Source of the DNA: Candidatus Velthaea sp.
Lineage (GTDB): Bacteria > Vulcanimicrobiota > Vulcanimicrobiia > Vulcanimicrobiales > Vulcanimicrobiaceae
Direction: 5' to 3'
Assembly: GCA_050012475.1 (NCBI GenBank)
Contig: JBEKHC010000065.1
Span: forward strand, 1 to 30,230
Length of the DNA: 30,230 nucleotides
Below the pieces are notes generated by a model. It searched no databases, had not been told where the DNA came from, and saw only the letters and a program-made list of their open reading frames with translations. A program made the position numbers and the translations under genes. Shown one piece after another: positions 5,391 through 25,016 of this stretch (positions are counted from its first letter, which is position 1; each line of letters begins with the position of its first letter).

Positions 5391-7166
5391 TCAGAGCGAG
5401 GCGTGCGGGCGCAAGAGCGCGGGCCGGGCCGCTACGGCGTGCGAGCCGCCGCGCAGCACGACGCGGGCGTGGCTGCCGCCGCCGGGCCGTTCACACACCG
5501 TGAAATCGATCGCCGTCGTCGCGATGACGAACGTGCCGCGGCCGCACTCGGCATAGGGATCGGGCGGACGCCGGACGATGTGGTAGCTGCGCCCGCCGTG
5601 ATCCAAGACGTGCAGGACGCTGTGGGCACCGCGGTGATCGATGACCACGACGACGTCCTGGGCGTGTCCGGCATGCCGCACGACGTTGCCGATCAGCTCG
5701 CTGAAAATCAGTTCGGCTGCGGCAAGATCGTCGGCGCGAACGGCTTGCGCTGCGAGCGAGGCGACGAACTCGCCGCGCGCAACTGCCGCAGCGGTGGCGT
5801 CGCGAACGTCGAACTGCCAGCGCCGGCAGTGTTCGGCGGCTTCATCGCCGTCGGTGCGCGCGACGAGCACGGCAACGTCATCGAACGAACCGGCGGGAAT
5901 GGCGCGCCGCCGGATGGCGTCGGCGGGATCCGGCGCCGCTGTCGTGACCACCCACGCGGCGGCTTCGTGCAGAGCGGCGATCCCCGCGATCACGTCGTGT
6001 CCGGCTTCGATCATGCCGTCGGTGTAGAGCACGAGCGTATCGCCCTGCGCGATCTCGGCGACGCTGGCATGACCGTGAAACCCTTCGCGCAGACCGATCA
6101 GCAGCGAATGCGGATCGTTCAATTCTCGCACGGTCCCGTCGGCCGCCACGGCCAGCGGCGGCGGATGGCCGGCCGATGCATAGGTGATGGTGCGCTCGAC
6201 CAAATCCAGGAGCCCGACCCAAGCGGAGACGTAGACGCCGGGATACTCGAGGTACAGCGCACGATCGGCGGCGTCGAGAATGAGCATCGGATCGGGGTGC
6301 AGCTGCGCGATGCCGCGCATAACCTGACGAACCACGCCGACGACGACCGCGGATTCCAGCCCACTGCCCGAAACGTCACCGATCGAAAGCAAAATGCGCC
6401 CGTCGATGAGGTGCACCGCGTCGTACCAATCACCGCCGACTTGCGCTTCGGCCAGCCCCGGTTCGTAGAGCGCATCGAACGTACAGCCCGGCACCGCCGG
6501 CAGCGTTGCCGGCAGGACCGCGCGTTGGAATGCGGTCGAACACTCGCGTTCGCGCTGGGCCTCGAGCTCGGCGGCACGCTGGCGCGCCCCGGCATGCATC
6601 AGACGCAGCCGCTCGGCCCCGGTGCGCTCGGTAATGTCGGCGAGCACGGCCAGGGTGAAGCCGGCTCCGCCGCTTTGCACCGGGCTGAGCGCGATCTCGA
6701 GCGGCACTTCGGTACCGTCTTTGCGGCATCCGCACAGATCGCGGCCGACGCCCATCGGCCGCACGATCGAGGTGCTGCCCAAAGCGTTGCGCAGGTCGCC
6801 ATGCCGCCGTGCGAAGCGTTTGGGAATGAGCATTTCGACAGGTCGGCCCAGCAGCTCGTCGCGCCGGTAACCAAAGAGCTTTTCCGTCTGCGCGTTGACG
6901 AGCGTGATACAGCCGCGCCCGTCGGCGAGGATTATCGCCGTCGGCGCGGACTCGACGATCGCTCGGAACAGCTCGCCGGGAACGGCAGCGCGCGTTGCAT
7001 GCTCGACGGAGCGCAGCCCGGACATCAGTTCGTCCAGCCCGCACAGCGAAGCGACGACGCTCTGTACGTTTCCCGGCGTCGGTTCGGTTTCTCCCTGGAC
7101 GAATGACTCCAGACCGGTCATCGCTTCGGCCAAGCCGGCACGCAACGTCTGCAGCGGACTCTTCAT
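5391..7166 (-). CDS. Pseudo-DHp + PAS + SpoIIE/PP2C phosphatase + RsbW-type HATPase protein (paralog 1)
   Basis: AAGGAG RBS before ATG 7166; PAS (VNAQTEKLFGY...RKDGTEVP); PP2C motifs GGDWYD, GDVSGSG, SAGHPPP, LYTDG, DDVAVL; N-box SELIGNVVRHA. Confidence 0.85.
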   Translation of the reverse strand: MKSPLQTLRAGLAEAMTGLESFVQGETEPTPGNVQSVVASLCGLDELMSGLRSVEHATRAAVPGELFRAIVESAPTAIILADGRGCITLVNAQTEKLFGYRRDELLGRPVEMLIPKRFARRHGDLRNALGSTSIVRPMGVGRDLCGCRKDGTEVPLEIALSPVQSGGAGFTLAVLADITERTGAERLRLMHAGARQRAAELEAQRERECSTAFQRAVLPATLPAVPGCTFDALYEPGLAEAQVGGDWYDAVHLIDGRILLSIGDVSGSGLESAVVVGVVRQVMRGIAQLHPDPMLILDAADRALYLEYPGVYVSAWVGLLDLVERTITYASAGHPPPLAVAADGTVRELNDPHSLLIGLREGFHGHASVAEIAQGDTLVLYTDGMIEAGHDVIAGIAALHEAAAWVVTTAAPDPADAIRRRAIPAGSFDDVAVLVARTDGDEAAEHCRRWQFDVRDATAAAVARGEFVASLAAQAVRADDLAAAELIFSELIGNVVRHAGHAQDVVVVIDHRGAHSVLHVLDHGGRSYHIVRRPPDPYAECGRGTFVIATTAIDFTVCERPGGGSHARVVLRGGSHAVAARPALLRPHASL

Positions 7167-7247
7167 GCGCTCCTTTTGGGAATCGACCTTTCGCGTCACG
7201 AGCAGCCGGTGCCCTGGTCGGATGATAAACCAGAGGTTAAAGCCGCG

Positions 7248-9032
7248 TTAGACCATCGCTCGCGCCCGGAGCGGGCCGGGACGGACGCTGCCGCTGCGCA
7301 GCACGACGCGGGCGTGACTGCCGCCGTCGGAGCGTTCGGAGACCGTGAAGTCGATGCTCAACGCCGCGATCAAAAAGAGCCCGCGGCCGTTTTCGGCCAG
7401 CGGATCGGGCGGCAGCCGGCTGATGTGGTAGAAGCCGCTGCCGCGATCGAGCACGTGGAGTACGCTGTACGGTCCGCCGTGATCGATGATGACTTCGATC
7501 ATCTCGGCGTGGGCGGCGTGCCGCACGACGTTGCCGATCAGTTCACTGAAGATGAGCTCGGCGTTGCCGTGATCGTCGGCGCCGAATCCGCGCTGCTCGA
7601 GCGATGCGACGAAGGCCTCGCGCACGGTGCGGGCCGCGTGCGGGTCGAGAACGTCGAATTGCCAGCGTTCGATGAGGCGTTCGGCTTCGGCGCAATCGGT
7701 GCGCACGACCAGCAGTGCGACGTCGTCGAGCGCACCGTCGGGTATCACTTGGTGGCGAATGGCGTTGGCGGGGTGCGGGCTGGGGGCGGGGGCGAATGCG
7801 GCCGCAGCTTCCGCCAGCGCTTGGCTGCCGGCGATCACATCGCGACCGGCTTCGGTGACGCCGTCGGTGTACAGTACGAGCGCGTCGCCTTGCGCGAGCG
7901 GAATGCTGGTGGGTTGCCCGCGATGGTTTTCCCGCAGCCCGATCAGCAGCGTGGAAGCGTCGTGGAGTTCGCGCACGCTGCCCGTGCTGGAGACCAGCAG
8001 CGGGGGCGGGTGACCGGCCGACGCATAGGTGATTTTGCGCATGACCAGATCGATGAGCCCCACCCAGGCCGAAACGTAGACGCCCGGATATTCCAGACAC
8101 AGCGCGCGGTCGGCGGCGTCGAGGATGAGCATCGGGTCGGCGTGCAACTGCGAGATGCCGCGCATGACTTGACGTGCCACGCCGACGACGACGGCGGCCT
8201 CGAGCCCGCTGCCGGCGACATCGCCGATTGAGACCAGGATCCGTCCGTCGGTGAGATGCACCGCGTCGTACCAATCGCCGCCCACCTGCGCCTCGCCGAG
8301 GCCCGGTTCGTAGACGGCGTCGAACGCGCAGCCGCGAACGCGCGGCAGGCCGACGGGCAGAACCGCCCGCTGAAACGTCGTCGACCATTTGCGCTCGCGT
8401 TCGGCCTCGAGTTCCGCCGCGCGCTGCTGCTCCCCGGCGTGCAGCAGGCGCAGCTCTTCGGCGAGTTTGCGGGCCGTGATGTCGCTGATTGCCGCCAGCG
8501 TGAAGGTTACGGCGCCGGTTCGGACCGGATTGAGGCCGATCTCGACGGGCACTTCCGTGCCGTCCTTGCGCCGGGCGTACAGATCGCGCCCGGCGCCCAT
8601 CGGCCGCGCGATCGGCGCGCCGCTGAAGCTCGCGCGCAGGCCGGCATGGCCGCGGCGAAAGCGCTCGGGCACCAGCATGTCGATCGATCGGCCGAGCAGT
8701 TCATCACGCCGGTAGCCGAACAGCTTTTCGGTTTGCGCGTTGACCAGCGTGATACGGCCGCGCTCGTCGACGACGACGATCGCACTGGGCGCCGCCTCGA
8801 CCACGAGATTGAAGATATTCTCGCTTTCCGTCTCGAGCGGCGGCTGCGCCGATCCGAGTTTGAGCAGCAGTGCGTCCAACCCGGCAAGCGAGGCGAGCAC
8901 CTCGCGCAAGCTTTGCTTGTCGGGCTCGCGTTCGCGGGCGATGACCGCTTTGAGGTCGCCGATCGCGGCGGCGATGTCGCCGCGCAGCTCCGCAAGCGTT
9001 TGCTCCAAGGCGCTCACCTCTGGGGCGTTCAC
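7248..9032 (-). CDS. Pseudo-DHp + PAS + SpoIIE/PP2C phosphatase + RsbW-type HATPase protein (paralog 2)
   Basis: Same motifs as paralog 1; intact DRGSG and ENGRGLFLI G-boxes. Confidence 0.87.
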   Translation of the reverse strand: MNAPEVSALEQTLAELRGDIAAAIGDLKAVIAREREPDKQSLREVLASLAGLDALLLKLGSAQPPLETESENIFNLVVEAAPSAIVVVDERGRITLVNAQTEKLFGYRRDELLGRSIDMLVPERFRRGHAGLRASFSGAPIARPMGAGRDLYARRKDGTEVPVEIGLNPVRTGAVTFTLAAISDITARKLAEELRLLHAGEQQRAAELEAERERKWSTTFQRAVLPVGLPRVRGCAFDAVYEPGLGEAQVGGDWYDAVHLTDGRILVSIGDVAGSGLEAAVVVGVARQVMRGISQLHADPMLILDAADRALCLEYPGVYVSAWVGLIDLVMRKITYASAGHPPPLLVSSTGSVRELHDASTLLIGLRENHRGQPTSIPLAQGDALVLYTDGVTEAGRDVIAGSQALAEAAAAFAPAPSPHPANAIRHQVIPDGALDDVALLVVRTDCAEAERLIERWQFDVLDPHAARTVREAFVASLEQRGFGADDHGNAELIFSELIGNVVRHAAHAEMIEVIIDHGGPYSVLHVLDRGSGFYHISRLPPDPLAENGRGLFLIAALSIDFTVSERSDGGSHARVVLRSGSVRPGPLRARAMV

Positions 9033-9045
9033 CGTTCGCGGGAAA

Positions 9046-11811
9046 CTACCTCATCGCGAGCGCGCGCAACAGCGCCGGCCGCATGCGTTCGGAGCGTTCT
9101 CCGCCGCGCAGCACGACACGCGCGTGGCTGCCGCCGTCGGGCCGTTCGGAAACGGTGAAGTCGACCGAGAGGGCCGCGATCAAGAACAGCCCGCGTCCGC
9201 TTTCGGCGTACGGATCGGGCGGCAGCCGGCTGATGTGATGGAAACCGCCGCCGCGGTCCATCACGTGCAGGACGCTGTAGAGGCCGCCGTGGTCGACGGC
9301 CACTTCGACTTCATCGCCTTGCGCGTGGCGCACGACGTTGCCGATGAGTTCGCTGAAGACCAGCTCGGCGTTCGCGCAGTGGTCGGCGTCGAAACCGCGC
9401 CCCTCGAGCGATTCGATGAAGTGCGTGCGCGCGTCGCTGGCGGCCCGGCCGTCGCGAACGTCGAATCGCCAGCGCTCGATGTAGCGTTCGGCTTCACGAT
9501 AGTCGGTCCGCACCACGAGCAGGGCGACGTCGTCGGCTGCGCCGTCGGGGATGACCTTGCGCCGAATCGCGTTGGCGGGATGGCGCGTCGGTTTCGTGAC
9601 TAGGGACGCCGCCGCTTCGCGCAGCGCGCGGCTGCCTTCGATCATGTCGCGGCCGGCTTCGGTCAGGCCGTCCGTGTAGAGCACCAGCGTGTCGCCGCGC
9701 GCGATCGAAACGGTGCTGGCTTGACCGCGGTGCCCTTCGCGCAAGCCGATCAGGAGCGATGTCGCATCCGGCAGCTCGCGCACGTCGCCTTCGCGCGAGA
9801 CCAGCAGCGGCGGCGGATGTCCGGCTGAGGCATAGGTGATCGTGCGCGTGACCAGATCGATCAGCCCGACCCACGCGGACACGTAAACCCCCGGATACTC
9901 CAAACACAGCGCGCGGTCTGCGGCGTCGAGGATGAGCATCGGATTGGCGTGCAGCTGGGAGATTCCGCGCATGATCTGGCGGGCGACGCCCACGACGACG
10001 GCGGCCTCGAGTCCGCTGCCGGCCACGTCGCCGATCGAAACGAGGATCCGCCCGTCCATGAGTAAGACCGCGTCGTACCAATCGCCGCCGACTTGCGCGT
10101 CGCCCAGACCCGGCTCGTAGACGGCGTCGAACGTGCAGCCGGCGACCTTGGGCAGCGCGAGCGGCAGCACCGCGCGCTGAAACGTCGTCGACCAGCGCCG
10201 CTCGTGTTCGTATAACCGCTCGCGTTCTTCGTTGCGGGCCGATTCTTTTTCATCGTGCAGTTGTTCGGCGAGGCTGCGCATTTGGGTGACGTCCCAATTG
10301 ATGCAAACCATGCGGATCGGCCGCTCGACGTTGTTGCGCACGGTCGTCGCCTGCGCGCGGATTGCGTGGACCTCGCCGTTGGGCCAAACGATGCGGAACT
10401 CGGTGTCGAAGTGCTCGCGGCCGGCGAGCGCCGTGTAGAGCAGCTGCATGACCCGTGCCCGGTCCTCGGGATGGAGCGCCCCTTTCCAGGTTCCGAAGGC
10501 CGGCCGAGCCGCTTGCGGGTCGAGCCCGTAGAGCGCGAACACGTGCGCGTCCCAGGTCATGGTTTCGGCGTTGACGTCCCATTCCCAAATGCCGACCTTG
10601 CCGGCTTGCGTGGCGAGCGCGACGCGCTCGATGAGCCGCTCGCGTTCGCGCTCGTTTTCTTTTTGCTCGGTGATGTCCTGAAAGATGCCGACGAGCGCGG
10701 TCACGACGTCATCGGCATCGCGTTCGCCGCGGCCCGAACAGCGCACGTCGCGAAACGTGCCGTCGGAACGCAGGACACGCGTTTCGTACGTAAACGGTTC
10801 GCCGTTCAGCGTCGCGTGGTGAACGATCGCCGCGACGTCGACGCCTTGCGGATCGAACAGCGACAACGAGCTTTCCAGCGTCGGAACGAAACTCGGCGGC
10901 AATCCGAAAATCCGGTAGACCTCCGCCGACCACACGATATCCCGGGTCGCAAGATCGAAACGCCAATGTCCGTAGCGCGCGATCTCTTCGGCCATCGTCA
11001 TCAGCCGATTCGCGCTCAGCAGCGCTGTTTCGGCGGCGCGCTGCTGGTCCGCGGCTGCGCGGCGTTCGGTGATGTCGGTGATCGATGCGACGACGACGGG
11101 CCCGTGCGGCGTCTGGGTTGCATTGAACGTTACTTCGGCGGGAAACGCGCTGCCGTCACGGCGCTGCCCGGTCAACTCTTCGCGCGCGCAAAAATCGGAC
11201 AAAGCCGCACTGTGCTCGAGCGCCGGCAGCGCATTTCGATAGGCCGGCAGATCGATTCCTTGACCGGTCAACAATCGCTCGAGCGGCAAGCCTGAGATCG
11301 TTCCGGGACGGTAACCGAAGATGCGTTCGGCTTGCGGGTTGGCCAACGTGATGACGCCCGATTCATCGATGATGAGCATGCCGTTGGGCGCCGCGTCGAC
11401 GATGACGCGGCGTTGCTCTTCGGCGAGCGAACGGTCCGTGACGTCGCGCGTGATCTTGGCGAATCCGATGAACGTACCGTCCTCATCGTGCAATGCCTCG
11501 ATGACGGCGCTTGCCCAGAAACGCTCGCCGTTCTTGCGGACGCGCCAGCCTTCGCCTTCGTAGGTGCCGGCGGCACGGGCGGCGGCAAGAATCCGGTTCG
11601 GCTCGCCGCGGGCGACGTCGTCGGCGGAAAAAAAACGGGAGAAGTGCTGCCCGACGATCTCGCCGGCCTCGTAGCCCTTGATGCGCTGCGCGGCGCGGTT
11701 CCAACTTGCGACGGTGCCGTCGACATCGAGCATATAGATGGCGACGTCAACGATGCCCTCAACGAGCAAGCGATACGAAATATCGCTCGTCAACCGCGGA
11801 GCGAAGCTCAC
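9046..11811 (-). CDS. Multi-PAS (about 4) + SpoIIE/PP2C phosphatase + RsbW-type HATPase protein (paralog 3)
   Basis: GAGGAAG before GTG; four PAS/PAC repeats (SWNRAAQRIKGY, ANPQAERIFGY, WSAEVYRIFG, WDAHVFALYG); PP2C and HATPase motifs DRGGG, ESGRGLFLI. Confidence 0.87.
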   Translation of the reverse strand: MSFAPRLTSDISYRLLVEGIVDVAIYMLDVDGTVASWNRAAQRIKGYEAGEIVGQHFSRFFSADDVARGEPNRILAAARAAGTYEGEGWRVRKNGERFWASAVIEALHDEDGTFIGFAKITRDVTDRSLAEEQRRVIVDAAPNGMLIIDESGVITLANPQAERIFGYRPGTISGLPLERLLTGQGIDLPAYRNALPALEHSAALSDFCAREELTGQRRDGSAFPAEVTFNATQTPHGPVVVASITDITERRAAADQQRAAETALLSANRLMTMAEEIARYGHWRFDLATRDIVWSAEVYRIFGLPPSFVPTLESSLSLFDPQGVDVAAIVHHATLNGEPFTYETRVLRSDGTFRDVRCSGRGERDADDVVTALVGIFQDITEQKENERERERLIERVALATQAGKVGIWEWDVNAETMTWDAHVFALYGLDPQAARPAFGTWKGALHPEDRARVMQLLYTALAGREHFDTEFRIVWPNGEVHAIRAQATTVRNNVERPIRMVCINWDVTQMRSLAEQLHDEKESARNEERERLYEHERRWSTTFQRAVLPLALPKVAGCTFDAVYEPGLGDAQVGGDWYDAVLLMDGRILVSIGDVAGSGLEAAVVVGVARQIMRGISQLHANPMLILDAADRALCLEYPGVYVSAWVGLIDLVTRTITYASAGHPPPLLVSREGDVRELPDATSLLIGLREGHRGQASTVSIARGDTLVLYTDGLTEAGRDMIEGSRALREAAASLVTKPTRHPANAIRRKVIPDGAADDVALLVVRTDYREAERYIERWRFDVRDGRAASDARTHFIESLEGRGFDADHCANAELVFSELIGNVVRHAQGDEVEVAVDHGGLYSVLHVMDRGGGFHHISRLPPDPYAESGRGLFLIAALSVDFTVSERPDGGSHARVVLRGGERSERMRPALLRALAMR

Positions 11812-12116
11812 CTTCCTCGCCCCTCGAACGCAACACGTGCCCTAGTTGCTTGTCGTACGGTACGGCCCACAGGTCCCCCGATTCCGGCTGATCCAATCAG
11901 AATGGCCCGTCGGCAGCAATGTGGCAACCCACTTGCAGCGGATTCACGGTTAAGATTCTCCGAAACGTGCATGTGCGGTACACCTTTCGGGCGCCATGCA
12001 CGCGGACGCCTCTTGTAGCGAACTCCGGTCCGAAGCCGACACGCAGCGCCGGCTTGCACAGGGGATTGACCTCGCCGACCGCAAAGAAATTTACTTTCGC
12101 ATGCCTCGGAGGCGCT

Positions 12117-13070
12117 ATGCTCCCGTTAGGTTTTTTGCCCGATACACGATTTCCCGAAGCACGGATTGAGCCGCTGGACAAGCGCTTCACGCCCAAAATC
12201 GGCAACACCGGGATCGAACGCATCGCGACCGGTTTTCGCTGGGCCGAAGGACCGGTTTATTTTCGCGACGGCGGTTACTTCGTCTTTAGCGATATTCCCA
12301 ATAACCGCATGATGCGCTGGCTCGAAGAAGACGGCCATCTCAGCGTCTTTCGTTCGCACTCGAATTACGCCAACGGGAACACCCGCGACCGCGAGGGCCG
12401 GCTGGTCAGCTGCGAACACGGCGCGCGCCGCGTCACCCGCACCGAACTCGACGGAACGATCACCGTGTTGGCGGACCGCTTCGGCGGCAAGCCATTCAAC
12501 GCGCCCAACGACGTCGTCGTGGCTTCCGACGGCGCCGTGTGGTTCACCGATCCGGGCTACGGCAGCCTCAACGACCACGAGGGCAACAAGGGCGAACTCG
12601 AAATTCCCGTCGCCGTGTATCGCCTCGATCCCGTCAGCGGCAAGGCCGTGGTCGTGGCCGACGATTTCGTGCGGCCCAACGGATTGGCGTTTTCACCCGA
12701 TGAGAAACAGCTCTACATCGTCGACAGCGGCATCACGCACGGTGGACCGGCGCACATCCGCGTTTTCGACGTTCATGGGCAGACGCTGCGCAACGGCAAA
12801 GTGTTCGCCGAAGACTTCGCGCCCGGACTCACCGACGGCATTCGCCTCGATCTCGAAGGCAATGTTTGGGCCAGCATGGGCTGGGGCGATCCTGCGGAGG
12901 ACGGCGTGCGCTGCTACGCGCCGGGCGGCGATCTCATCGGCAAGATCCACTTGCCCGAAACCGTCGCCAATCTGTGCTTCGGCGGCGCCAAACGCAACCG
13001 GCTCTTCATCGCCGCGAGCACCTCGATCTACACCGTCTACGTCGACGCAAAAGGCGCCCAGGTTCCGTAA
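12117..13070 (+). CDS. SMP-30/gluconolactonase/LRE family protein
   Basis: GGAGG RBS before ATG 12117; WAEGPVY, FSDIPNN, NAPNDVVV, WFTDPGYG, PNGLAFSPDE, TDG, NLCFGG motifs. Confidence 0.9.
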   Translation: MLPLGFLPDTRFPEARIEPLDKRFTPKIGNTGIERIATGFRWAEGPVYFRDGGYFVFSDIPNNRMMRWLEEDGHLSVFRSHSNYANGNTRDREGRLVSCEHGARRVTRTELDGTITVLADRFGGKPFNAPNDVVVASDGAVWFTDPGYGSLNDHEGNKGELEIPVAVYRLDPVSGKAVVVADDFVRPNGLAFSPDEKQLYIVDSGITHGGPAHIRVFDVHGQTLRNGKVFAEDFAPGLTDGIRLDLEGNVWASMGWGDPAEDGVRCYAPGGDLIGKIHLPETVANLCFGGAKRNRLFIAASTSIYTVYVDAKGAQVP

Positions 13071-13075
13071 ATCCG

Positions 13076-13414
13076 TCAGCCGCCGGCGCGTTTGACGCGC
13101 CGGCCGCGTTCGAGAAAATAGGCGACGACCGTGTCGCGATGATCGCCCTGTAATTCGAGCACACCGTTTTTCGTCGTTCCGCCGGTGCCGCACATTCGGC
13201 GCAGTTCTTTTCCCAATGCGTCGATCTCGCCGGCGGCGAGGCCGTGCACGAGCGTTACCGCGCTGGCGCGGCGTTTCTCGCGCAGCACGCGGACGATGCC
13301 GTCGTCGGGCAGTGCTTTGGCCGCCGGCCCGGGCACCGGCTTGCGTTTGGGCGGCTTGGGCAACGGCAGCGATCCGTCCGTCGAGTAGACCAAACGCCGG
13401 TCATCGTCGGGCAT
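13076..13414 (-). CDS. yciH: Translation initiation factor SUI1-family protein (YciH-like)
   Basis: RLVYSTD...DGIVRV...VTLVHGL...CGTGGTTKNGVLELQGDHRD...VKRAGG; start placed at MPDDD (13414). Confidence 0.85.
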   Translation of the reverse strand: MPDDDRRLVYSTDGSLPLPKPPKRKPVPGPAAKALPDDGIVRVLREKRRASAVTLVHGLAAGEIDALGKELRRMCGTGGTTKNGVLELQGDHRDTVVAYFLERGRRVKRAGG

Positions 13415-13427
13415 CGAATGCGTTCCG

Positions 13428-14180
13428 TCAGCCGATCGGACCGAGGGTTTCGCGAAAAAATCCGACCGCGTCGGCGTACGCGCGGTCGGTCTCGCTCGGA
13501 TTCCAGCGCAAGCCTTCGTCACGCATGAAGGCGTGCTCGCCGTCGTACATCGCGATCGTGTAGTCGGTGCCGCTCTTGGCAAACGCCGTTTGAATCGCGG
13601 TGATTGCATCGAGCGGGATGTGCGGATCTTTCGCGCCGAACGCGAGCGCGATGCGGCCGGCGATCGCGCCGTTTTCGACGTGCACGAGCGTGTCGGCATC
13701 GGTGCTGCCGCCCAGCGTGCTCGTGTGCAGACCGGTCGGATAGAACGCAACGGCGGCTTTGACGTCGGGCTGCAGCGCGGTTCGCACGGCGAGATGGCCG
13801 CCGATGCAGAAGCCCGTCACACCCAGCGCCGCCGAGCGCACGCGCGGATAGCCGGCGAGAAATTCGAGCGACGTGCGGGCGTCGGCATCAAAATGCGCGG
13901 CGAGCGTCGCCTGGGATGCGCGAAATGCGTGTTCGCGATCAGCGAACGGTATCACGGTGCCCGGCGCTTCGGTCCGATGATAGAACTCCGGCGCGACGAC
14001 GACGAATCCGTAGCTCGCAAACCGCATCGCGGCGCGGACCGTCGGTTCGGTCAAGGCAAAAATATCGGCGTACAGCAAGATGCCGGGGAAATGGCCGCCG
14101 GCCGTCGCCGGTTCCGCGACGAGCACGCGCATCGGCGTGTATTGGGCCGGGACGTCGACCGAGGAGGTCTTGACGATCAT
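13428..14180 (-). CDS. Dienelactone hydrolase family protein
   Basis: DIFAL, GFCIGGH nucleophile elbow, DPHIP, EHAFMRDEG; start placed at MIVK (14180). Confidence 0.9.
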   Translation of the reverse strand: MIVKTSSVDVPAQYTPMRVLVAEPATAGGHFPGILLYADIFALTEPTVRAAMRFASYGFVVVAPEFYHRTEAPGTVIPFADREHAFRASQATLAAHFDADARTSLEFLAGYPRVRSAALGVTGFCIGGHLAVRTALQPDVKAAVAFYPTGLHTSTLGGSTDADTLVHVENGAIAGRIALAFGAKDPHIPLDAITAIQTAFAKSGTDYTIAMYDGEHAFMRDEGLRWNPSETDRAYADAVGFFRETLGPIG

Positions 14181-14218
14181 CCGGCGCGTTTCGCGCGCAG
14201 CGTCGGCGCCGCCCGTCG

Positions 14219-14689
14219 TCAGAGGCGGATGGTTCGCGCGACCTCGGGGTCGGCTTGCAGTTCGGCCACCTCGGCTGGGCTGGGCAGCTGAGGCCGGTCG
14301 CGTTCGGAGCGCACCAAGCATAAAAAGCCCATCGGTTCGTCGTCCGCGGCGCGAAACTGGTGCCAGGTCATGGGCGGGACCCGGAACAGGTCGTAGGGGC
14401 CGAAGGGCGAGACGCGCGTGCCTACGACCGCGATTCCGCTGCCGCGCAGGATCATCACCGCGTGGACGTGCTCGTGCCGTTCGAGGGTCGTGTGCCCGCC
14501 GGCCGCGACCTCGAAGTAGCGCCACTGGCACCCCATCTCCGGCTCGTCGAAGAGCACTTGCCGGGTCACGTCTTTGAACGGCGCGCTTCCCTCGGCCTTA
14601 TAGGCGAGCACGTCGACTTCGGACCAGCGATAGCCCTGGGCGGCGTCGGAAAACGAACGGGGAACGGCGAGATCGGGGGCGGTTTTCAT
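14219..14689 (-). CDS. Cupin, probable methylthio-xylulose-5-phosphate methylsulfurylase
   Basis: YK.EGSAPFK.VTRQVLF...RYFE..GGHTTLERHEHVH...WHQF...GFLC; ATGA-coupled to the RLP. Resembles the R. rubrum MTA-isoprenoid shunt cupin from memory. Confidence 0.8.
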   Translation of the reverse strand: MKTAPDLAVPRSFSDAAQGYRWSEVDVLAYKAEGSAPFKDVTRQVLFDEPEMGCQWRYFEVAAGGHTTLERHEHVHAVMILRGSGIAVVGTRVSPFGPYDLFRVPPMTWHQFRAADDEPMGFLCLVRSERDRPQLPSPAEVAELQADPEVARTIRL

Positions 14690-15777
14690 GTCTGGGCCAC
14701 TTTCGCCACGAATTCGCGACTCCGTTCCAAGAGGGCGTTCCCCGCCGAGAGCAACCCGCCGCCGATGAGCAGCATGACCTCGCGGCCGTAGAAGGCGACC
14801 ATCTCCTCGACCCGATCGATGGTCATCCCGCCGGCGGGGACGGGGAAGGCCGGCCGCAGGCCGTCCCACGGCCCGCGCGCTGCGGCGGCGATGTCGCGGC
14901 ACTCCTGTTGGCTGTAGGAGAAGCGGCCGCCGTAATTCGGATAGATCACCGCATCGGCGCCGAGCAGCCGGAAGAAGCGGCCGAAGAGCCATGCCGGCGA
15001 GATCCTCGTGGCGCCGCCGAACGCCGGATGAGCCAGGAACAGCAGGTCGGGATAGCCTTCGACGAGTTCGTGAAAGGTCGCGGCACCGATGACCAGCGGC
15101 GCGACCAGCACGATCTTGATGCCCAAGTCGCACGCGGTGCGCGCCCGCTCGTGCAGCGCGCGCGGCGGACCGACGAGGCTGGGTGCGTACAGCACCTCGC
15201 GGCCGGTGATCTGGGCGGCTTCACGAATGGCGCGGCGGCAGGCGGCGGCACGTTCGGCGAACGGTGCGGCGACTTGATCGGCGATGCCGTGATCGTCCTT
15301 GATGACGTCGATCTCGGCCAGCGCGAACGTCCGGCACAGCGCGGCCAGCGTTTCGATCGACGAGCCTTGCGGCTTGAGCGCGGTGCTCGTCAACGGCCGG
15401 TCGACGACACCGAGCAGCGCCCGCAATCCCGCGATCCCGCCGCGCGGACCGCCGAATTCCGCGACGAGTTCGGGCGGAAATACGACGTCCTCTAGCCGCA
15501 CGTCCTCTTGCAGCGAACAGTTTCCGAACAGCATGCTGATGAGCTGTGCGACATCACCGCCGACGGTCTCCGTGGCCAGTCCCAGGACGACGCGGAAGCG
15601 GCCGTCACCGTCCGGCTCGATCGACTCCACCCGGCCGACGATCTCATCGCGAATGCGCTGCTCGCGCACGGCATCGAGCGGCATCTCGATGCTCTGCTCG
15701 ACGGCCAGCGCCTCCGCGCGGCGCGCGATATCGGCTGCGGGAGAAGCGATGCTATAGGTAACGCGCAGGCGGCTCAT
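14686..15777 (-). CDS. RuBisCO-like protein (form IV RLP), probable methylthioribulose-1-phosphate isomerase (DeepYkr type)
   Basis: AVEQSIE, LFGNCSL, FGGPRGGI.GLR, TALKPQG, DVIKDDHG (KDDH rather than KDDE), LAHPAFGG, PVPAGG, GGG motifs. Confidence 0.9.
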   Translation of the reverse strand: MSRLRVTYSIASPAADIARRAEALAVEQSIEMPLDAVREQRIRDEIVGRVESIEPDGDGRFRVVLGLATETVGGDVAQLISMLFGNCSLQEDVRLEDVVFPPELVAEFGGPRGGIAGLRALLGVVDRPLTSTALKPQGSSIETLAALCRTFALAEIDVIKDDHGIADQVAAPFAERAAACRRAIREAAQITGREVLYAPSLVGPPRALHERARTACDLGIKIVLVAPLVIGAATFHELVEGYPDLLFLAHPAFGGATRISPAWLFGRFFRLLGADAVIYPNYGGRFSYSQQECRDIAAAARGPWDGLRPAFPVPAGGMTIDRVEEMVAFYGREVMLLIGGGLLSAGNALLERSREFVAKVAQT

Positions 15778-15955
15778 GCGTGGCGGCTCATGCCTATACA
15801 AGCACGGCACCCGTTTGCCGAATCCCTTTCTTCACTGCGCGCGGGCCCAGCAGGCGAAGCAATGCTCGCGGCGCATCTACCGCCGCAATGCGCATGAAAT
15901 CTTTGAAGGTCACGACGGCGGGCCCGGTGCTGGCCGCGAAATAATCCGGCAGCGC

Positions 15956-16177
15956 GTGGATGGCAGCGGCGGTCCGGATTCCTGGCATCCGTTGTGGTAC
16001 GGCGTCGGCGCGGTGCTCGGCGTGATGATGGGCGTGGCCGTCGGCGGATCGTTCGTCAAGGAACGCGGCCGGCGCGTGCTGCCGGCGGTCATCGTTTCGA
16101 CGATCGTCGTCGCGGCGGTCGTCGGTTGGGCGCTCAATTTCGTGATGTACGCGTTTTACGCGAGCGCCTTTCACTAA
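15956..16177 (+). CDS. Small two-TM hypothetical membrane protein
   Basis: Two hydrophobic segments separated by a basic loop (KERGRR); start (GTG 15956) uncertain. Confidence 0.45.
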   Translation: MDGSGGPDSWHPLWYGVGAVLGVMMGVAVGGSFVKERGRRVLPAVIVSTIVVAAVVGWALNFVMYAFYASAFH

Positions 16178-16224
16178 AACCGGCCGGTTGGGAAGAGCTC
16201 CACTCGCGCCGAACCCCAGTCCCT

Positions 16225-16473
16225 ATGGAGAGCGGAGAGAAGCGCGTCTCCTGGTCGGAGTATCTCGCGCTCGAAGGAATGCCGGACGACGATCGCCGGC
16301 TCGACTACTCGTTCGGTGTTGTCGTTGCCCAAGGGGCACCGTCCCAAGACCATGAGACGATCGTTGCATCGCGTGATGCCGGCGAACTCGTCGACTACGG
16401 CGCCGAGAGCCGGCGAACGGGCGGCGCTAACGGCGCCTTTCAATCCAAGAAAGGATCGCACGCGGATAGATGA
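16225..16473 (+). pseudogene. Truncated Uma2-family endonuclease (N-terminus only)
   Basis: VSWSEYLALE...RLDY..G.VVAQ.APS..HETI matches the Uma2 N-terminus; similarity ends near 16370 and no PD-(D/E)xK core follows. Confidence 0.55.
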
Positions 16474-16579
16474 GGACGGTGCCGTCGGGCAGCTTGAGCG
16501 CCGGCAGCTTTTCTGTTAATTGTGTCGCTCATCGTTCAGCGGTCCCAGTCATCGTTCGCGCTGAAGACGAAACGTGCAT
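16427..16579 (-). pseudogene. Remnant of a glutaredoxin/GST N-terminal-domain gene
   Basis: AGGAGG RBS, then MHVSSSARTMTGTAER*ATQLTEKLPALKLPDGTVLIYPRAILSWIERRR*; the second half resembles the thioredoxin-fold VP.L..DG..L..S.AI..WL motif; in-frame TGA at 16529-16531. Confidence 0.35.
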
Positions 16580-16604
16580 GATGGCCTCCTGGGTGTCAGG
16601 CATA

Positions 16605-17351
16605 TCACGGATGCAGGTTGAGCGACGCGAGCCCGGAGCTTGGATCGAATGGGACGGAATTGTGCTCGTGCGTTATTTTCCAGTCGCCGGCGAATTTTTC
16701 GTAATTGCTCGTCACGCGCCACCACATGTCGATCGTCGCGCCGGCGGTGGTGGCTCCTCGCACGTGATGGAGCGCATGGCTGAAGGCGATGGCTTTTTGA
16801 GCGCGGAGCGACAACTCCCGAACGTCGGCTCGCTTCGCGATCGCGACCCGGCCCGCAAACTGAAGTGAATTGACGATGTCGAAAACCACGGCGTCGTCCG
16901 AGAAGTGCTGGCTCGCCGAGGCGGCGTCTTTCGCGCGCGTGGCGCGAATCCGATCGTTCACGATCGATCGCAGATCGTTCTCGGCGGTGTCGCTCGGCAA
17001 AGACTTCTCGTCGACGAGCCCGACGACGTGCTCCTGCGGATCCTCGATGAGCGCGACGCGAACGCCGCCGTCCGGGGCTTGCGCGGGCGACCGCATGACC
17101 TTGCCGCCGAGGCGCACGACGTCGTGCACCGATTTTTCGAGATCGGCAACGCAAACAAAGAAGGTCACGTAACTGTGCAGATCGTCACGAACATCGCCGC
17201 CGACGCCGATCGGGATGCCGGGGCTTGCGTCATCAGCAAACGCGATGCGATACTGCATGTCGCCCAGTGCGTGCGGGCTGGGCGGATCGAATCGCCACGA
17301 AAATGCATCGCGATAAAACGCTTGCAACGCGCCGGCGTCGCCGCCGATGAC
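16605..17351 (-). pseudogene. VOC/glyoxalase + SnoaL-like (NTF2) fusion, 5'-truncated
   Basis: VIGGDAGALQAFY..AFSW, TFFVCVADL, LGG.V, EDPQEHVVGL, then DAVVFD...WKITHEHNSVPFD. Native start and VVHFE-type motif are missing. Confidence 0.7.
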
Positions 17352-17737
17352 CGCGGGGCGCGGCACTGCGGGACGCCGTTGTGGAGCTGGGGCGCTGGGG
17401 AGCACCCTTGCTCGAGTACGCGCCGTCGACAGATGCCTTTCGCATGAGCTGGATCTCGCTTGGGGTCGAGTCGTTTCTGCGTGATTCGCAGCCGGGCGGG
17501 CCGCGCACAGCGATTCAATTACGCATCGGCACCGAATTGGCCGTGGTCGAAACGGCGGGCGGCGCAGTGCGCTTCCGAAGCGGCGTCGATGCGATGCCGG
17601 ACGCGGTCCTCGAAGGGCCCGTTCACTTGGTATCGTCGGTACTTTTTGGGAGCAGAGCGCTGCGGACGGCGCAACGGCAGGGTCTCAAATTTCGCGGCAG
17701 CCATCAAGCCCTGCAGCGTCTGGTTCCGCGCACCTGA
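17351..17737 (+). pseudogene. C-terminal part of an HxlR-family regulator with SCP2-like tail (HTH missing)
   Basis: Frame reads PRGAALRDAVVELGRWGAPL...DAFR..W...PDAVLEG, i.e. the end of an HxlR wHTH; an in-frame TGA lies immediately upstream. Confidence 0.65.
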
Positions 17738-17790
17738 AGTCCAAAAGCAAAGTACGTCTCCGGACGACAGCGGGCAATGCGGCCCTGGGC

Positions 17791-19002
17791 TTAGCTCGCG
17801 GGCCCGCGGTTTGGCTCGCGGGCCATCAGCTTGGCGACGTCGCGCGCGATGGCGAACTCTTCGCGCGCGCGCACGACCGTGACGCGCACCGCCGATTGCG
17901 GTGCGGAGATCACGCGGTCGGCGTCGCTGCCGTCAGACGGCGCGTCAAGGGCGACGCCGAGAAAAGCAAGCTGCGCGCACACGCGGTCGCGTACGTAGGC
18001 GGAATTCTCGCCGACCCCGCCGGTAAAGGCGAGCGCATCGATCCCGCCGGTTGCCGCGGCCATCGACGCCACGGCCGCGCTGACGCGGCGCACGTACATC
18101 TCGAGCGCTAATTGCGCCGGCTCGGAGCCGTCCTTTGCTGCCGCGATGACGTCGCGCACGTCCTCGGAGCGCTGCGAAACGCCTTTGAGTCCCGAGTCGT
18201 GATTGAGAATCGCGTACAGTTGGTCGGCCGTGTACGCCTTCGTCGTGAGCAAGTGCAGCACCAAACCCGGATCGACGCTGCCCGAACGGGTGCCCATCAT
18301 GACGCCCTCGAGCGGCGTGAAGCCCATGGTGGTGTCGACGCTTTTCCCACCGGCGACCGCGGTGAGCGAACAGCCGTTGCCCAAATGCGTGGTCACCAAC
18401 CGCAATTGCGCCGGATCGCGCCCCAGCAGTTCCGCCGTGCGGCGCGCGCAATAGCGATGGCTGATGCCGTGAAAACCGTAACGTCGAATGCCGCGCGATG
18501 CGAACCACTCGTACGGCAACGCGTATGCCGCCGCTGCGGCGGACAGCGTAGTGTGAAACGCGGTGTCGAAGTCGACCGCTTGCGGTACGGCAGGAAACTC
18601 GGCGCTGACCGCATCGATGCCGGCCAGCGCTGCGCGGTTGTGCAGCGGCGCGAGTTCGGCCGCCGATTCGATGAGCGCGCGGACCCGCGCGTCGACGATC
18701 GTGCAGCGCGACTCGGTCAGTCCGTGCACGATGCGGTGACCGACGAAATCGGGTGCGATCCCGAACGTTTCGGCCGCCGAGTGCAGCAAGGCGGCGGCGG
18801 CGGCGCCGTGGTCGTCGACGTCGACGTCACTGGACCCGCTGCCCGCGGCCGTCTTCCATTGCAGCTTGGACGGCGTCCGCGCGGCGGTCCAGCGAACATC
18901 GCCCGACCAATCGGGGTCGGGCGAAAATTCAGCTCCGTTTTGGCCCTCGAAGTACGCGGCTTTGAAGCTGCTGGAGCCGGCGTTGAGGACGAAAACGTTC
19001 AC
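17791..19002 (-). CDS. ackA: Acetate/propionate kinase
   Basis: VLNAGSSS.K, GHRIVHG, APLHN, FDTAFH, RRYGFHGISH, HLGNGCS, TMGFTPLEG..MGTRSG, FTGGVGEN, EE motifs. Confidence 0.93.
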   Translation of the reverse strand: MNVFVLNAGSSSFKAAYFEGQNGAEFSPDPDWSGDVRWTAARTPSKLQWKTAAGSGSSDVDVDDHGAAAAALLHSAAETFGIAPDFVGHRIVHGLTESRCTIVDARVRALIESAAELAPLHNRAALAGIDAVSAEFPAVPQAVDFDTAFHTTLSAAAAAYALPYEWFASRGIRRYGFHGISHRYCARRTAELLGRDPAQLRLVTTHLGNGCSLTAVAGGKSVDTTMGFTPLEGVMMGTRSGSVDPGLVLHLLTTKAYTADQLYAILNHDSGLKGVSQRSEDVRDVIAAAKDGSEPAQLALEMYVRRVSAAVASMAAATGGIDALAFTGGVGENSAYVRDRVCAQLAFLGVALDAPSDGSDADRVISAPQSAVRVTVVRAREEFAIARDVAKLMAREPNRGPAS

Positions 19003-19006
19003 CTGG

Positions 19007-19522
19007 TTAGATCGAGGATTCCATGTTCCGCCGGGTCTCGGCCTTGGTTTCTTCGACCGCCACAAAGTCGGCTTCGATCGAATCGGCGATCATCGCGAGC
19101 AAATTGCGAGCGGTGTTTTGGGCGATCTTGTGTCCGACCACGGCATCGAATGCGGCGCCGACCGCGCCCAGCGGCGGTTCGTACGTGCCGCTGAGAACCA
19201 AGTAGAAGCTATTGTAATCGTCGGAGCTTTCGATCGCCAAATCGCCGCTGAACGTGGGATACGGTCCGGTGCGTTCGGGCGCCCACGTCACCGCGTAGTG
19301 CGGCATGATGTCACCCGGTTTATGGCGCGGTACGAGAGTGGCGATCGCCGTCCGTTCGAGCCGCATCGGCGCTTTCGATCCGGGAACCGGAACTTCAGCG
19401 CGCAAGCTCAACCGCGCGACCTCGCCATCGCTGTTGCCGCGCGCTTTGAAATAGCGGGCAAGATGGCGTGCGGCTTGATTGACGCTGCAGTGCACGAGCG
19501 TTCGTTCGGTGAGGATACTCAT
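19007..19522 (-). CDS. Hypothetical protein (W.P...P.F.G.L...G.Y.PP.G..G..FD...G..IA family), paralog A
   Basis: GGAG RBS before ATG 19522; ends 4 nt upstream of ackA; clear paralog at 24479-24946. Confidence 0.75.
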   Translation of the reverse strand: MSILTERTLVHCSVNQAARHLARYFKARGNSDGEVARLSLRAEVPVPGSKAPMRLERTAIATLVPRHKPGDIMPHYAVTWAPERTGPYPTFSGDLAIESSDDYNSFYLVLSGTYEPPLGAVGAAFDAVVGHKIAQNTARNLLAMIADSIEADFVAVEETKAETRRNMESSI

Positions 19523-19550
19523 GGATTTCTCCGTGGAAAGGCGGGCGCGA

Positions 19551-19630
19551 GCATTACGGCTTCGTCGGACTGGTTGCGAGCGGCCTGCGGACGGCGCATG
19601 CAACCCGAGCAACGACGAAGGCGCCAATGC
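19551..19630. other. Long interrupted intergenic hairpin
   Basis: Nested pairs GCATT/AATGC, CTTCGTCG/CGACGAAG, GGTTGC/GCAACC. Confidence 0.4.
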
Positions 19631-19665
19631 GAGGTGTTCGGCGAACGAACTCCGGCGAACTCCTT

Positions 19666-20394
19666 TTAGGCCACCGGCGCGATTGCGGGCAGCGTGACCG
19701 GCAAACCGTGGTCGCAGACGGTGCAGGTCGCGAACGGGGCGGTCGGACCCGGCAGGCGGATCGTGAAGAGCGCGCCGCCCGAGCCGCTCTCGGCGACGGC
19801 GATCGTGCCGCCGTGCGCGTGGACAAGGCTTTGACACACGGCCAAACCCAGGCCCTTCCCCGCAACCGACGCGCCGGCGGAGCCGCGCACGCCCCGCTCG
19901 AAAATCAAGCCGCGCTCGGCGGCCGGAATACCCGGCCCGCTGTCACTGATCTCAACGGCCAGAACTCCGGGCTCGCGGTGGCAATAGAGGGTCACCGTCC
20001 CCCCGCGCCCGGTATAGTTTATCGCGTTGAGCAACATGTTGGTGATGACTTGGCCGACCTGCACGGGATCGCAGGTGAAGACGGCACATTCGGGATGGGT
20101 GAGCGCGCATTGATCGACGTGCAGGCGAATTCCCGCATTGTGCGCCGTTGCTTCCAGGGCCAGCGCTTCGCGCGCGACGAGCGCGCACATGTCGACCAAT
20201 TCGAGCTTCGGGGCGGCCGCAGCAATGTCGGCGACCGGACGCAAGTCGTCGATGAGCACGTTGAGCTTGTGCAGCGCGTTCAGTACCGCTTCCAACCGTT
20301 GGGTCGTCGGCGCCAGCTTGCCGTCGATGAAGGCTTCGATGTTGGCCACCGAGATGGTCAGCTGATTGCGCATCTCGTGGATCGTCGAGCGCAT
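19666..20394 (-). CDS. Histidine kinase (DHp + HATPase) lacking an N-terminal sensor or TM region, Cys-rich
   Basis: H-box HEMRNQL at residue 6; N-box NMLLNAINY, G1 DSGPGI, F-box IFER, G2 GKGLGL; TGATG overlap with the response regulator. Confidence 0.88.
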   Translation of the reverse strand: MRSTIHEMRNQLTISVANIEAFIDGKLAPTTQRLEAVLNALHKLNVLIDDLRPVADIAAAAPKLELVDMCALVAREALALEATAHNAGIRLHVDQCALTHPECAVFTCDPVQVGQVITNMLLNAINYTGRGGTVTLYCHREPGVLAVEISDSGPGIPAAERGLIFERGVRGSAGASVAGKGLGLAVCQSLVHAHGGTIAVAESGSGGALFTIRLPGPTAPFATCTVCDHGLPVTLPAIAPVA

Positions 20395-21098
20395 CAGCCT
20401 TCCACGAACTTATAGCCTACGCCGAAGACGGTTACGATGTGCTTGGGGTGGGTGGGGTCGGATTCGAGTTTCTGGCGCACGTTGGCGATGTGCCGGTCGA
20501 GCGTCCGGTCGTAGATGTCGAGCTGATCGTCGGTCACGGCGTCGAGCAGCTGCGCCCGGGTAAAGGTACGGCCGGCATGGTCGATGAGCGTGCGCAGGAT
20601 GCGAAACTCGGTCGGGGTGACGTTGACCGGCCGCCCGGCTCGCCGGACTTCGTGGCCGACGCGATCGAACTCGATCTCGCCGAAGCGCTGTACGCCCGAA
20701 GCGGCCGAACGGCGACCGTTCGTCCGGCGCAGCACGGTTTTCACGCGCGCAACGACTTCGCGCGGGCTGAACGGCTTGCCGATGTAGTCGTCCGCGCCGA
20801 GCTCCAAGCCGACGACCCGGTCGATCTCGTCGACGCGCGACGTCACCATGATCACCGGCATGTCGGACTCGTCGCGGATCGCCCGGAAAACTTCGACCCC
20901 CGACATGGTGGGCAGCGAGAGATCGAGCAGGACCAGATCGGGCCGCTCGCGCTGCACGACGCGCAGCGCCTCATCGCCGTCGTGGGCGACGTGGACGTTA
21001 AAACCCTCGTCGCGCAGGTAGGTGCGCAAGATGTCGACGATTGCCGGTTCATCGTCGACGATCAGCACGCTCGACGGCGCTCGCGCCCCGTATACCAT
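20394..21098 (-). CDS. OmpR/PhoB-family response regulator
   Basis: LIVDDE, LLDL.LP, GLELGADDYIGKPF, TPTEFRIL, RTLDRHI.N.R.KL, TVFGVGYKF. Start uncertain by a few codons. Confidence 0.92.
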   Translation of the reverse strand: MVYGARAPSSVLIVDDEPAIVDILRTYLRDEGFNVHVAHDGDEALRVVQRERPDLVLLDLSLPTMSGVEVFRAIRDESDMPVIMVTSRVDEIDRVVGLELGADDYIGKPFSPREVVARVKTVLRRTNGRRSAASGVQRFGEIEFDRVGHEVRRAGRPVNVTPTEFRILRTLIDHAGRTFTRAQLLDAVTDDQLDIYDRTLDRHIANVRQKLESDPTHPKHIVTVFGVGYKFVEG

Positions 21099-21157
21099 GA
21101 ACGGTAGGTTCGACCTCGAAAGGAAGCCCCCCGCCGAAGGTGCGCCTAACTCACATG

Positions 21158-21907
21158 TTACGCGTGCTTCGCCGGGTCGCGAAACGCGAACCAAAATATG
21201 GTGCCGACGACCGCGAACGCGAACGCCAAGAGTCCCAGCATCGCCGTCCCGCTCAAGGCGAGACCGCCGGCACCGCAACGTTCGGCAACCGCGCTGAGCC
21301 AAGCGCGCGCGCTGGTGAGGGGATCGTTGCTCGCTGCGATGCTCGAGCGCGCGAAACCGATCAATTCGTCGACGGTCCAATCGTTGCCGTAGACGATGCG
21401 CGCGACTCGTCCGTCGGGTCCGAGGATGACGGCGGCTTCGGTGTGGATGATGACGCCCGGCGCCGTCGTCGACGTCGCGATGCCGAAGCGTTGGGCCAGC
21501 TCGTCGATCGACGCCGCCGAACCGGTCGCAAGCGTCCACCGTTTGGGATCCTGGCCGAACGCCCGGCCGTACCGCGCAAGGACGCGCGGCGTGTCGAAAT
21601 CGGGATCGAGCGTAAGGATGACGAGACGGATCGGAGCCGTGCCGATCGCACGTTGCGCTCGTGCGAATTTTGCGGACACCAGCGGACACATCCGCGCGTC
21701 GCCGCAGCGCGTGTAGATAAACGAAACGGCGACGGCTTTGCCGCGCAGTTCATCGAGCGAGAAGCTGCGGCCGTCCTGAGCGACGAGCGGAATCGCGGGA
21801 ACGGCGTCGCCCGGCTGCAGCAGCGGGATGAACCGCTGCGCAGCCCCTGCGCTGCCCGTCGCAATCGCGATGAGTGCGGCGAACAGCGCGAGGAGGCGAA
21901 CTACCAA
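21158..21907 (-). CDS. SCO/SenC-family copper chaperone
   Basis: QDGR.FSL, FIYTRCGDARMCP, TLDPDFDTP..L..Y, IIHT (His ligand); probable TTG start overlapping the cbaA stop. Confidence 0.85.
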   Translation of the reverse strand: MVVRLLALFAALIAIATGSAGAAQRFIPLLQPGDAVPAIPLVAQDGRSFSLDELRGKAVAVSFIYTRCGDARMCPLVSAKFARAQRAIGTAPIRLVILTLDPDFDTPRVLARYGRAFGQDPKRWTLATGSAASIDELAQRFGIATSTTAPGVIIHTEAAVILGPDGRVARIVYGNDWTVDELIGFARSSIAASNDPLTSARAWLSAVAERCGAGGLALSGTAMLGLLAFAFAVVGTIFWFAFRDPAKHA

Positions 21908-24946: not shown

Positions 24947-25016
24947 CCAGGGGCTATTGCCGACGCCGAACGCCGTTTCCGCCTTTGCAGCCGCGCCGGT
25001 GCGGCGGCCGCCTCCG

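Follow-up and report, generated by a model that had tools for sequence, protein, structure and literature searches.

His-less DHp-like hairpins on two SpoIIE proteins of a Candidatus Velthaea contig: probable descent from a hybrid-kinase cassette within a phylum-wide hairpin family

Our study examined a stretch of 30,230 nucleotides from Candidatus Velthaea sp. (assembly GCA_050012475.1, contig JBEKHC010000065.1, positions 1 to 30,230), referred to below as the window, in which two neighbouring genes encode proteins that begin with a hairpin resembling the domain for dimerization and histidine phosphotransfer (DHp) in histidine kinases, without its acceptor histidine. The genes described in this paragraph lie on the reverse strand. 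Paralog 1 (5391..7166, 591 aa, with an alternative GTG start at 7199) and paralog 2 (7248..9032, its start uncertain between 9008, 9017 and 9032) share the domain order hairpin-PAS-SpoIIE-HATPase_c_2. The hairpin of paralog 1 (7005..7166; alignment and profile) carries the changes H6Q, N10A and D24Q, and that of paralog 2 (8847..9008; alignment, profile and AlphaFold) H6A, N10G, E20K, D24A and G25R; the PAS domains follow at 6609..6968 and 8454..8813. Paralog 3 (9046..11811) is a multi-PAS-SpoIIE-HATPase_c_2 protein without a hairpin. The window also encodes a soluble DHp-CA histidine kinase (19666..20394) that is BaeS-like, below the NCBIfam cut-off, and has no separate sensor domain. Its hairpin (20233..20394) bears H6, N10 and D24, and a stretch of its catalytic and ATP-binding (CA) domain (19981..20187) holds four conserved cysteines, C70, C96, C103 and C138. 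The stop codon of an OmpR-family response regulator (20394..21107) shares one base with the start of the kinase.

The N-termini of both paralogs are diverged members of a DHp hairpin family of the Eremiobacterota. An earlier note on this DNA had aligned them without gaps to the N-terminus of the window kinase, and its identities (16/54 for paralog 1 at 7166-7005, 14/51 for paralog 2 at 9008-8856) were exact on recount, as was the replacement of His6 by Gln and Ala, respectively. Its description of a kinase that starts at its own DHp agrees with a domain scan, which returned DHp-CA only. Local scores against the kinase N-terminus were 74 for paralog 1 and 59 for paralog 2, and neither was reached by any of 5000 shuffles. 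As shuffles cannot exclude generic amphipathic helices, an independent family profile was built from 102 database rows, with both paralog N-termini left out. When all 73,031 stop-to-stop frames of the genome were scored with this profile, the two N-termini ranked fourth (E 2.7e-6) and fifth (E 3e-5), ahead of the genome's best canonical HisKA (E 0.0044), which rules out a generic coiled coil, one of the outcomes that the note had named as refuting its proposal. A search against HisKA itself, also proposed there, gave no direct match for either N-terminus in Pfam at E<=0.1, whereas PF00512 (HisKA) was matched by 40 of the 44 family rows scanned. AlphaFold placed the helices of paralog 2 at residues 5-23 and 31-52, with modest confidence over the hairpin block (pLDDT 58-68), and these boundaries agree with those of the window kinase (2-23 and 31-51). 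At the acceptor and H+4 positions paralog 1 has Q6 and A10 and paralog 2 A6 and G10, which are not the residues of an active DHp.

For both N-termini the closest match in the genome lies outside the window kinase, on a second contig, C14, where a hybrid kinase begins with a His-bearing hairpin to which the paralog hairpins are 35-37% identical. Compared with the PAS of this C14 hybrid, that of paralog 2 shows 78% identity and that of paralog 1 55%, at a synonymous divergence (dS) of 0.74-1.17, similar to that between the paralogs themselves (0.61-0.89). Eight more SpoIIE fusion proteins were recovered from metagenomes, of which five resemble paralog 2 and three paralog 1, and the equal sizes of their contigs hint at the same tandem order as in the window. 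In a tree of 41 rows (the trees used here were quick trees), 10 SpoIIE hairpins and 12 hybrid hairpins split from the 19 others with a support of 100. From the best genome hit, the PAS identity, the dS and this support, it is well supported that the paralog hairpins came in a hairpin-PAS cassette from a hybrid kinase rather than from the window kinase, and paralog 3 may represent the kind of backbone that received the graft.

Among the top PAS hits are FixL and DosP (E 3e-13 to 4e-13) with a histidine aligned, and this histidine, which we take to be the heme ligand of FixL/DosP, is invariant in 10/10 fusions; paralog 1 keeps it in register with paralog 2. Heme binding and O2 sensing by the paralogs are thus predicted by this similarity. 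The SpoIIE phosphatase and kinase body, presumably an RsbU/RsbP-type protein fused to an RsbW-type one and acting in partner switching, has the same PAS-SpoIIE-HATPase_c_2 order as Rsb-type proteins, but two copies carry a DHp-derived N-terminus. SpoIIE domains are expanded in this genome (33 matches) and a SpoIIE-type match occurs in 232 of 301 family genomes; the DHp-derived N-terminus was seen on only those two SpoIIE copies of the genome.

Further fusions were sought in several ways. A word-index search with residues 1-62 of paralog 1 returned only itself among 192 candidates, and as orthologues exist in spite of this blank, such blanks mean little. No SpoIIE fusion appeared in the best 120 of 172 matches of a longer-protein profile search, a weak null because His-less copies score low. 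When paralog 2 was searched family-wide, with four candidates scored per genome, the 150 matches listed of 581 contained no alignment that began at the N-terminus other than those of the copies in this genome, and one partial match (L075) had no hairpin when its locus was inspected. A metagenome DNA scan returned a single locus, a split hybrid with no SpoIIE fusion, and a scan of a genome collection found the hairpin in 7 of the 78 loci listed and a PAS-SpoIIE gene in none of those listed.

The hairpin family itself is widespread, as a five-row profile matched 206 of 401 Eremiobacterota/Vulcanimicrobiota genomes. Five members lie in the present genome: the window kinase, the two paralogs and two proteins on C14. 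The C14 locus (L001:8343-11289) duplicates the system, with a second regulator and a degenerate-CA hairpin protein (L001:8343-8927), divergent from the hairpin-PAS-HisKA-CA kinase, which is cut by the contig end, and it adjoins a phosphoketolase and a universal stress protein. Its regulator is the closest paralogue of the window regulator in the genome (272 bits, next 171). Across the genomes the family takes the form of sensor-less kinases, degenerate-CA proteins, stand-alone proteins, most of them 52-70 aa long, and domains at the N-terminus of PAS hybrid kinases that carry a receiver (REC) domain at the C-terminus; the weakest profile matches are HAMP-bearing membrane-type kinases. The degenerate-CA subtype members P0006, P0017 and P0024 gave no HATPase match, and His6 is present in 31/31 stand-alone and 2/2 degenerate-CA rows. 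The closest NCBIfam models of the window pair, BaeS (108 bits, cut-off 500) and BaeR (229 bits, cut-off 380), both fall below their cut-offs, and unlike BaeS the window kinase has no membrane sensor or HAMP and starts at its DHp. The neighbouring genes repeatedly encode oxidase subunits, acetate kinase, phosphoketolase and universal stress proteins, which may constitute a low-oxygen gene set.

Within this family the hairpins of the SpoIIE proteins stand out by their decay. Among 97 His-type rows, gathered with a profile that favours His, H6 was present in 96/96 rows covering the position, N10 in 97/97 and D24 in 96/97. The 10 SpoIIE fusion rows kept H6 in two, N10 in two and D24 in one, with H6 and N10 together in none; L5, R9, A15, L19 and L41 were invariant, so that the hydrophobic core is kept. 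Where PAS identity exceeded 85%, hairpin identity was 88-98% in 23 hybrid pairs compared to 44-73% in 8 SpoIIE pairs, and at a PAS identity of 60-70% the mean hairpin identity was 50% (126 hybrid pairs) compared to 37% (20 fusion pairs), the pairs in these comparisons not being independent. Between paralogs 1 and 2 the dN/dS ratio was ~0.8 for the hairpin, calculated from 52 codons only, compared to 0.37 for PAS, 0.24 for SpoIIE and 0.48 for the kinase domain. Drift was fastest in the hairpin loop and surface, where P0248 also has a 2-residue deletion, while the partner kinase is highly conserved.

These rates bear on the model of the earlier note, in which the His-less hairpins either form heterodimers with the window kinase or attach to its regulator, so that they lend a PAS sensor in trans or inhibit, and couple a His-Asp pathway to a Ser/Thr one. 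Both sides belong to the same DHp family and lie on the same contig, the core residues are kept, and DHp heterodimers have precedents in ChrS-HrrS (PMC9491836) and in RetS-GacS, where the heterodimer blocks autophosphorylation as this model requires (PMC8498467). However, a surface that fits a conserved partner should not drift so, and the fast drift therefore counts against partner binding. Compared to matched hybrids, the His-less hairpins show no conserved partner-facing surface of the kind expected from RetS or the pseudokinase DivL, and no co-occurrence with the kinase. The base of the hairpin reportedly sets dimer specificity, in work attributed to Ashenberg in 2011.

The co-occurrence data point the same way. 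The window kinase is found phylum-wide and the SpoIIE-hairpin fusion in 10 sequences, and a profile that included both N-termini detected no His-less hairpin in three genomes of the same genus (88-94% complete) in which the kinase is present. At E 1e-25, 28 of 39 kinase-bearing genomes (completeness 70-99%) had no match to the PAS-HisKA family and 11 had one. The kinase and paralog genes lie 10-12 kb apart, and upstream of paralogs 1-3 there is no strong site for the motif of the oxidase gene set described below. A complex prediction for the kinase DHp and the paralog 1 hairpin scored 0.21 against a mark of 0.32, was run with no controls and is not used as evidence.

The window kinase may, moreover, have an input of its own. 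All four CA cysteines were present in 34/40 aligned kinases and 84/94 further hits, two sets that may overlap, against a background of 0.3%. In an alignment with HK853, C70 coincides with one of its cysteines and C103 lies beside a second, and a C-terminal CxxC (C224 and C227 in the window kinase) occurs in 18/40 kinases. The four cysteines could form a redox or metal site of the kinase, a more tentative part of our reading, in which case no borrowed sensor would be needed. A comparable hypoxia-linked kinase, SrrB of Staphylococcus aureus, has CA cysteines that form a redox disulfide (review PMC8534201); the window kinase differs in its four cysteines, the frequent CxxC and the lack of a membrane or PAS domain, and cysteine positions were compared with HK853 only. 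Given the hybrid-cassette descent, the surface decay, the absence of His-less copies from the three same-genus kinase genomes and the kinase's own cysteines, a sensor lent in trans is not upheld, and we regard the heterodimer model as decidedly unlikely. What stands of the split-kinase proposal is that His-less homologues of the kinase's DHp family lie beside a low-oxygen cluster.

The parent family is the stronger lead, and the function of its hairpin was approached through the loci of the family. In 57 wide loci (5-20 kb, picked by rank and frame length, with kin that are not independent), a separate PAS-HisKA kinase was present in 29/32 stand-alone-hairpin loci, one of which is a split hybrid (L067), compared to 0/18 full-kinase loci, one of which comes from the unpublished genome G360. 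Within one genus the corresponding counts were 6/7 and 0/5. An OmpR regulator was present in 27/32 stand-alone loci, and most of the stand-alone loci lack any further kinase from the family cognate to the regulator. The neighbouring PAS kinases are hybrids with their own REC or precede single-REC genes, the REC domains could be aligned, and the stand-alone form requires 8 changes on the tree. In L081 a regulator, a hairpin and a hairpin-less hybrid follow in a row, the split form of the fused P0047. As for the three exceptions, in two a PAS kinase lies at a distance of 11-14 kb, in one case interrupted by two stops, and the third, L063, has a full kinase nearby. The contrast between 29/32 and 0/18 suggests that the stand-alone hairpin may be a Spo0B/ChpT-like phosphocarrier, with phosphate passing from the kinase to REC, to the hairpin His and to the regulator. 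The parent family has the conserved His, and kinase, REC and regulator are encoded together; a degenerate CA is found in one subtype only. We infer that the parent hairpin works like the Spo0B/ChpT proteins, and do not file it as a member.

A function for the His-less copies within such a relay has also to be weighed. They could be decoys that mix with the C14 hybrid hairpin or the degenerate-CA protein and damp the relay, since their nearest kin are hybrid hairpins, C14's among them at the identity given above, and both potential partners are present in the genome. Also in favour is locus L126, an independent case of decay after duplication, in which a His-bearing hairpin-PAS-only gene (L126:4440-5138) lies near a hybrid kinase (7857-9956) with a His-less hairpin. 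The same fast drift, and the lack of any conserved surface specific to the His-less copies, make this very improbable to us. A broader version, in which a portable hairpin serves the phylum and the His-less SpoIIE copies are decoys that dimerize with His-bearing hairpins, thereby tying partner switching to the relay, we consider unlikely.

The reading that we favour, with somewhat better than even confidence, is that the SpoIIE hairpins are cassette-derived dead scaffolds or relics, that the parent hairpin takes part in a four-step relay and that the window kinase is independent of both. A hairpin-PAS cassette would have been copied from a hairpin-PAS-HisKA-CA-REC hybrid onto a SpoIIE-Ser/Thr-kinase backbone, with a tandem duplication. 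In the SpoIIE proteins both the chemistry and the docking surface would then have decayed, as we propose, because there is no REC donor in cis. Having no His, the window copies cannot act as phosphocarriers, and their hairpin would at most pair two PAS domains as a homodimer; the proteins may be partner-switching phosphatase-kinases that are gated by heme/O2 and work independently of the window kinase. In the parent system a heme-PAS kinase would pass phosphate to REC, then to the hairpin His and finally to an OmpR-type regulator of the low-oxygen gene set, the His-bearing hairpin being the third station whether it sits on a hybrid N-terminus, stands alone or is carried on a degenerate CA domain. 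That the low-oxygen response of the Eremiobacterota runs through one portable DHp hairpin, as a bare carrier, as the N-terminus of a heme-PAS hybrid or as part of a cysteine-sensing kinase, seems to us slightly more probable than the contrary.

Several observations weigh against this account, as do the limits on sampling, row selection and codon number given with the counts above. When the SpoIIE hairpins were joined to the window kinase, the approximately unbiased (AU) test, on 54 columns, did not reject this grouping (p 0.30), leaving room for the closeness to the kinase that would favour the heterodimer, and a quick tree of 107 rows supported the hybrid and SpoIIE group at only 88. Two paralog 1 orthologues keep His6, so that decay is incomplete or uneven, and the hairpin is in frame in all 10 fusions, so that some constraint may remain. 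The full-kinase genome G232 has a PAS kinase ~9 kb away, outside the locus; the 11 kinase genomes with a PAS-HisKA match show that both families can occur together, and several of the other 28 hold more distant PAS kinases. Lastly, the parent hairpin keeps N10 throughout its 97 rows, the H+4 Asn that is the phosphatase residue of HisKA proteins (PMC3510030), so that phosphate may flow in either direction.

This residue would suit an alternative in which the SpoIIE hairpins are likewise relics, and the OmpR regulator loses its phosphate to the parent hairpin, acting as a sink or as a phosphatase that is gated by phosphorylation, in the manner of RedE in the RedCDEF system of Myxococcus xanthus, a kinase-like protein unable to autophosphorylate that takes phosphate from a REC protein and next acts as a phosphatase on RedF (PMC2755868). 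With no other cognate-family kinase in most stand-alone loci, however, the regulator's phosphate donor would be missing, and PhyT, first taken for a phosphatase, proved to be a phosphotransferase (PMC5898713). We place this alternative on the unlikely side.

The proposed relay, with the hairpin as its third station, has several known counterparts. Spo0F-Spo0B-Spo0A of Bacillus and CckA-ChpT-CtrA of Caulobacter likewise connect a kinase, a REC, a kinase-derived His carrier and a transcriptional regulator (PMC9981736), and the anatomy of Spo0B and ChpT is matched by degenerate-CA members such as L001:8343-8927. The carrier described here differs in that it is often a bare hairpin of 52-70 aa without a CA remnant, or is fused to a hybrid N-terminus, and in that it is BaeS-like and accompanied by an OmpR-type regulator and low-oxygen genes. 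Pak-SdrG-PhyT-PhyR of Sphingomonas melonis also places a kinase-derived phosphotransferase between a single-domain REC and a regulator, although PhyT is membrane-anchored, with an HRxxN motif and a degenerate ATPase domain (PMC5898713). NmpRSTU of Myxococcus similarly combines a heme sensor kinase and extra REC proteins with an oxygen-use regulon, but it senses with a protoglobin, includes another complete kinase and has NtrC-type output (PMC11841059). HisKA proteins without an ATPase (PMC5847659), kinase-derived carriers (PMC9981736, PMC5898713) and oxygen relays with extra RECs (PMC11841059) are therefore already in print. A search of full-text literature, with most subscription papers outside its scope, turned up no account of this hairpin family, of a carrier that consists of the hairpin alone or of a hybrid kinase with such a hairpin fused in front of it; the phylum is unmentioned in the main text of a 2026 preprint on HisKA-like profiles, and a review (PMC12189002) offered nothing closer.

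As for the His-less hairpins, domain shuffling probably produced them as a by-product. The wider interest lies in a phylum that holds full-kinase, degenerate-CA, bare, fused and dead forms of one hairpin beside the same regulator, which makes the conversion of a kinase to a phosphotransferase, and whether ~55 residues suffice for it, directly testable. A bare hairpin as carrier, if true, would be an unusually minimal signalling relay, and the relay would provide a first oxygen-sensing model for a phylum common in peat and soil, with interchangeable inputs (a heme-PAS relay or a four-cysteine kinase). Short hairpin genes fall below the Pfam cut-off and are easily missed.

Further genes near the kinase, likewise on the reverse strand, recur beside other members of the family. 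Those at 17791..19516 encode acetate kinase and a 169-aa protein without a name, and those at 21158..24041 encode SCO1 and oxidase subunits I and II (Pfam COX1/COX2; ba3-type is the label of the earlier note). A conserved motif at 24073-24094 lies upstream of oxidase subunit II, and across related loci upstream of stress-protein and phosphoketolase genes. It was learned from 42 upstream regions, the window's own included, with a log-likelihood of 232 compared to 71 in shuffles, and is a candidate regulator box or promoter. An unnamed family of ~150-200 aa is present in most loci of the system, often in several copies (window 19007-19516 and 24479-25075; L001:2865-3563); the two window copies have no Pfam match, and the first also has no NCBIfam match.

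Misassembly of the two fusions was ruled out, as contigs from sequencing runs X3 and X5 span the hairpin/PAS junctions of paralog 1 and paralog 2, respectively, and P0244 shows 99% identity. The RNA contigs of run X19 touch the region but do not show transcription. Strain variants, an in-frame 3-base deletion among them, are clustered at 6963-6997 in the linker between hairpin and PAS of paralog 1 (X1, X3 and X19). The kinase domain of paralog 1 scored 34.6 bits compared to 54 for paralog 2, and may be degenerating.

Among unusual family members, P0073, P0091, P0078 and P0097 have the hairpin fused to REC, HisKA-REC or winged-helix domains, and some of these may be frameshift products. At L067:1070-1399 and L082:9845-12120 only 6 bases separate the stop of a hybrid-type hairpin from a GTG codon at which a PAS kinase may start; the split is either natural or a frameshift, and the two have an identical hairpin sequence and so are not independent cases. 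In L063 (genome G291) the window kinase has an orthologue from the same genus that is truncated to 90 aa, and a second, full kinase without an adjacent regulator lies 3.7 kb off. Elsewhere in the window, the gene at 14219-15810 encodes what is presumably, by eye, a RuBisCO-like product, and adjoins a cupin-like gene. The sequencing runs that contain the window stretch are soil and peat metagenomes.

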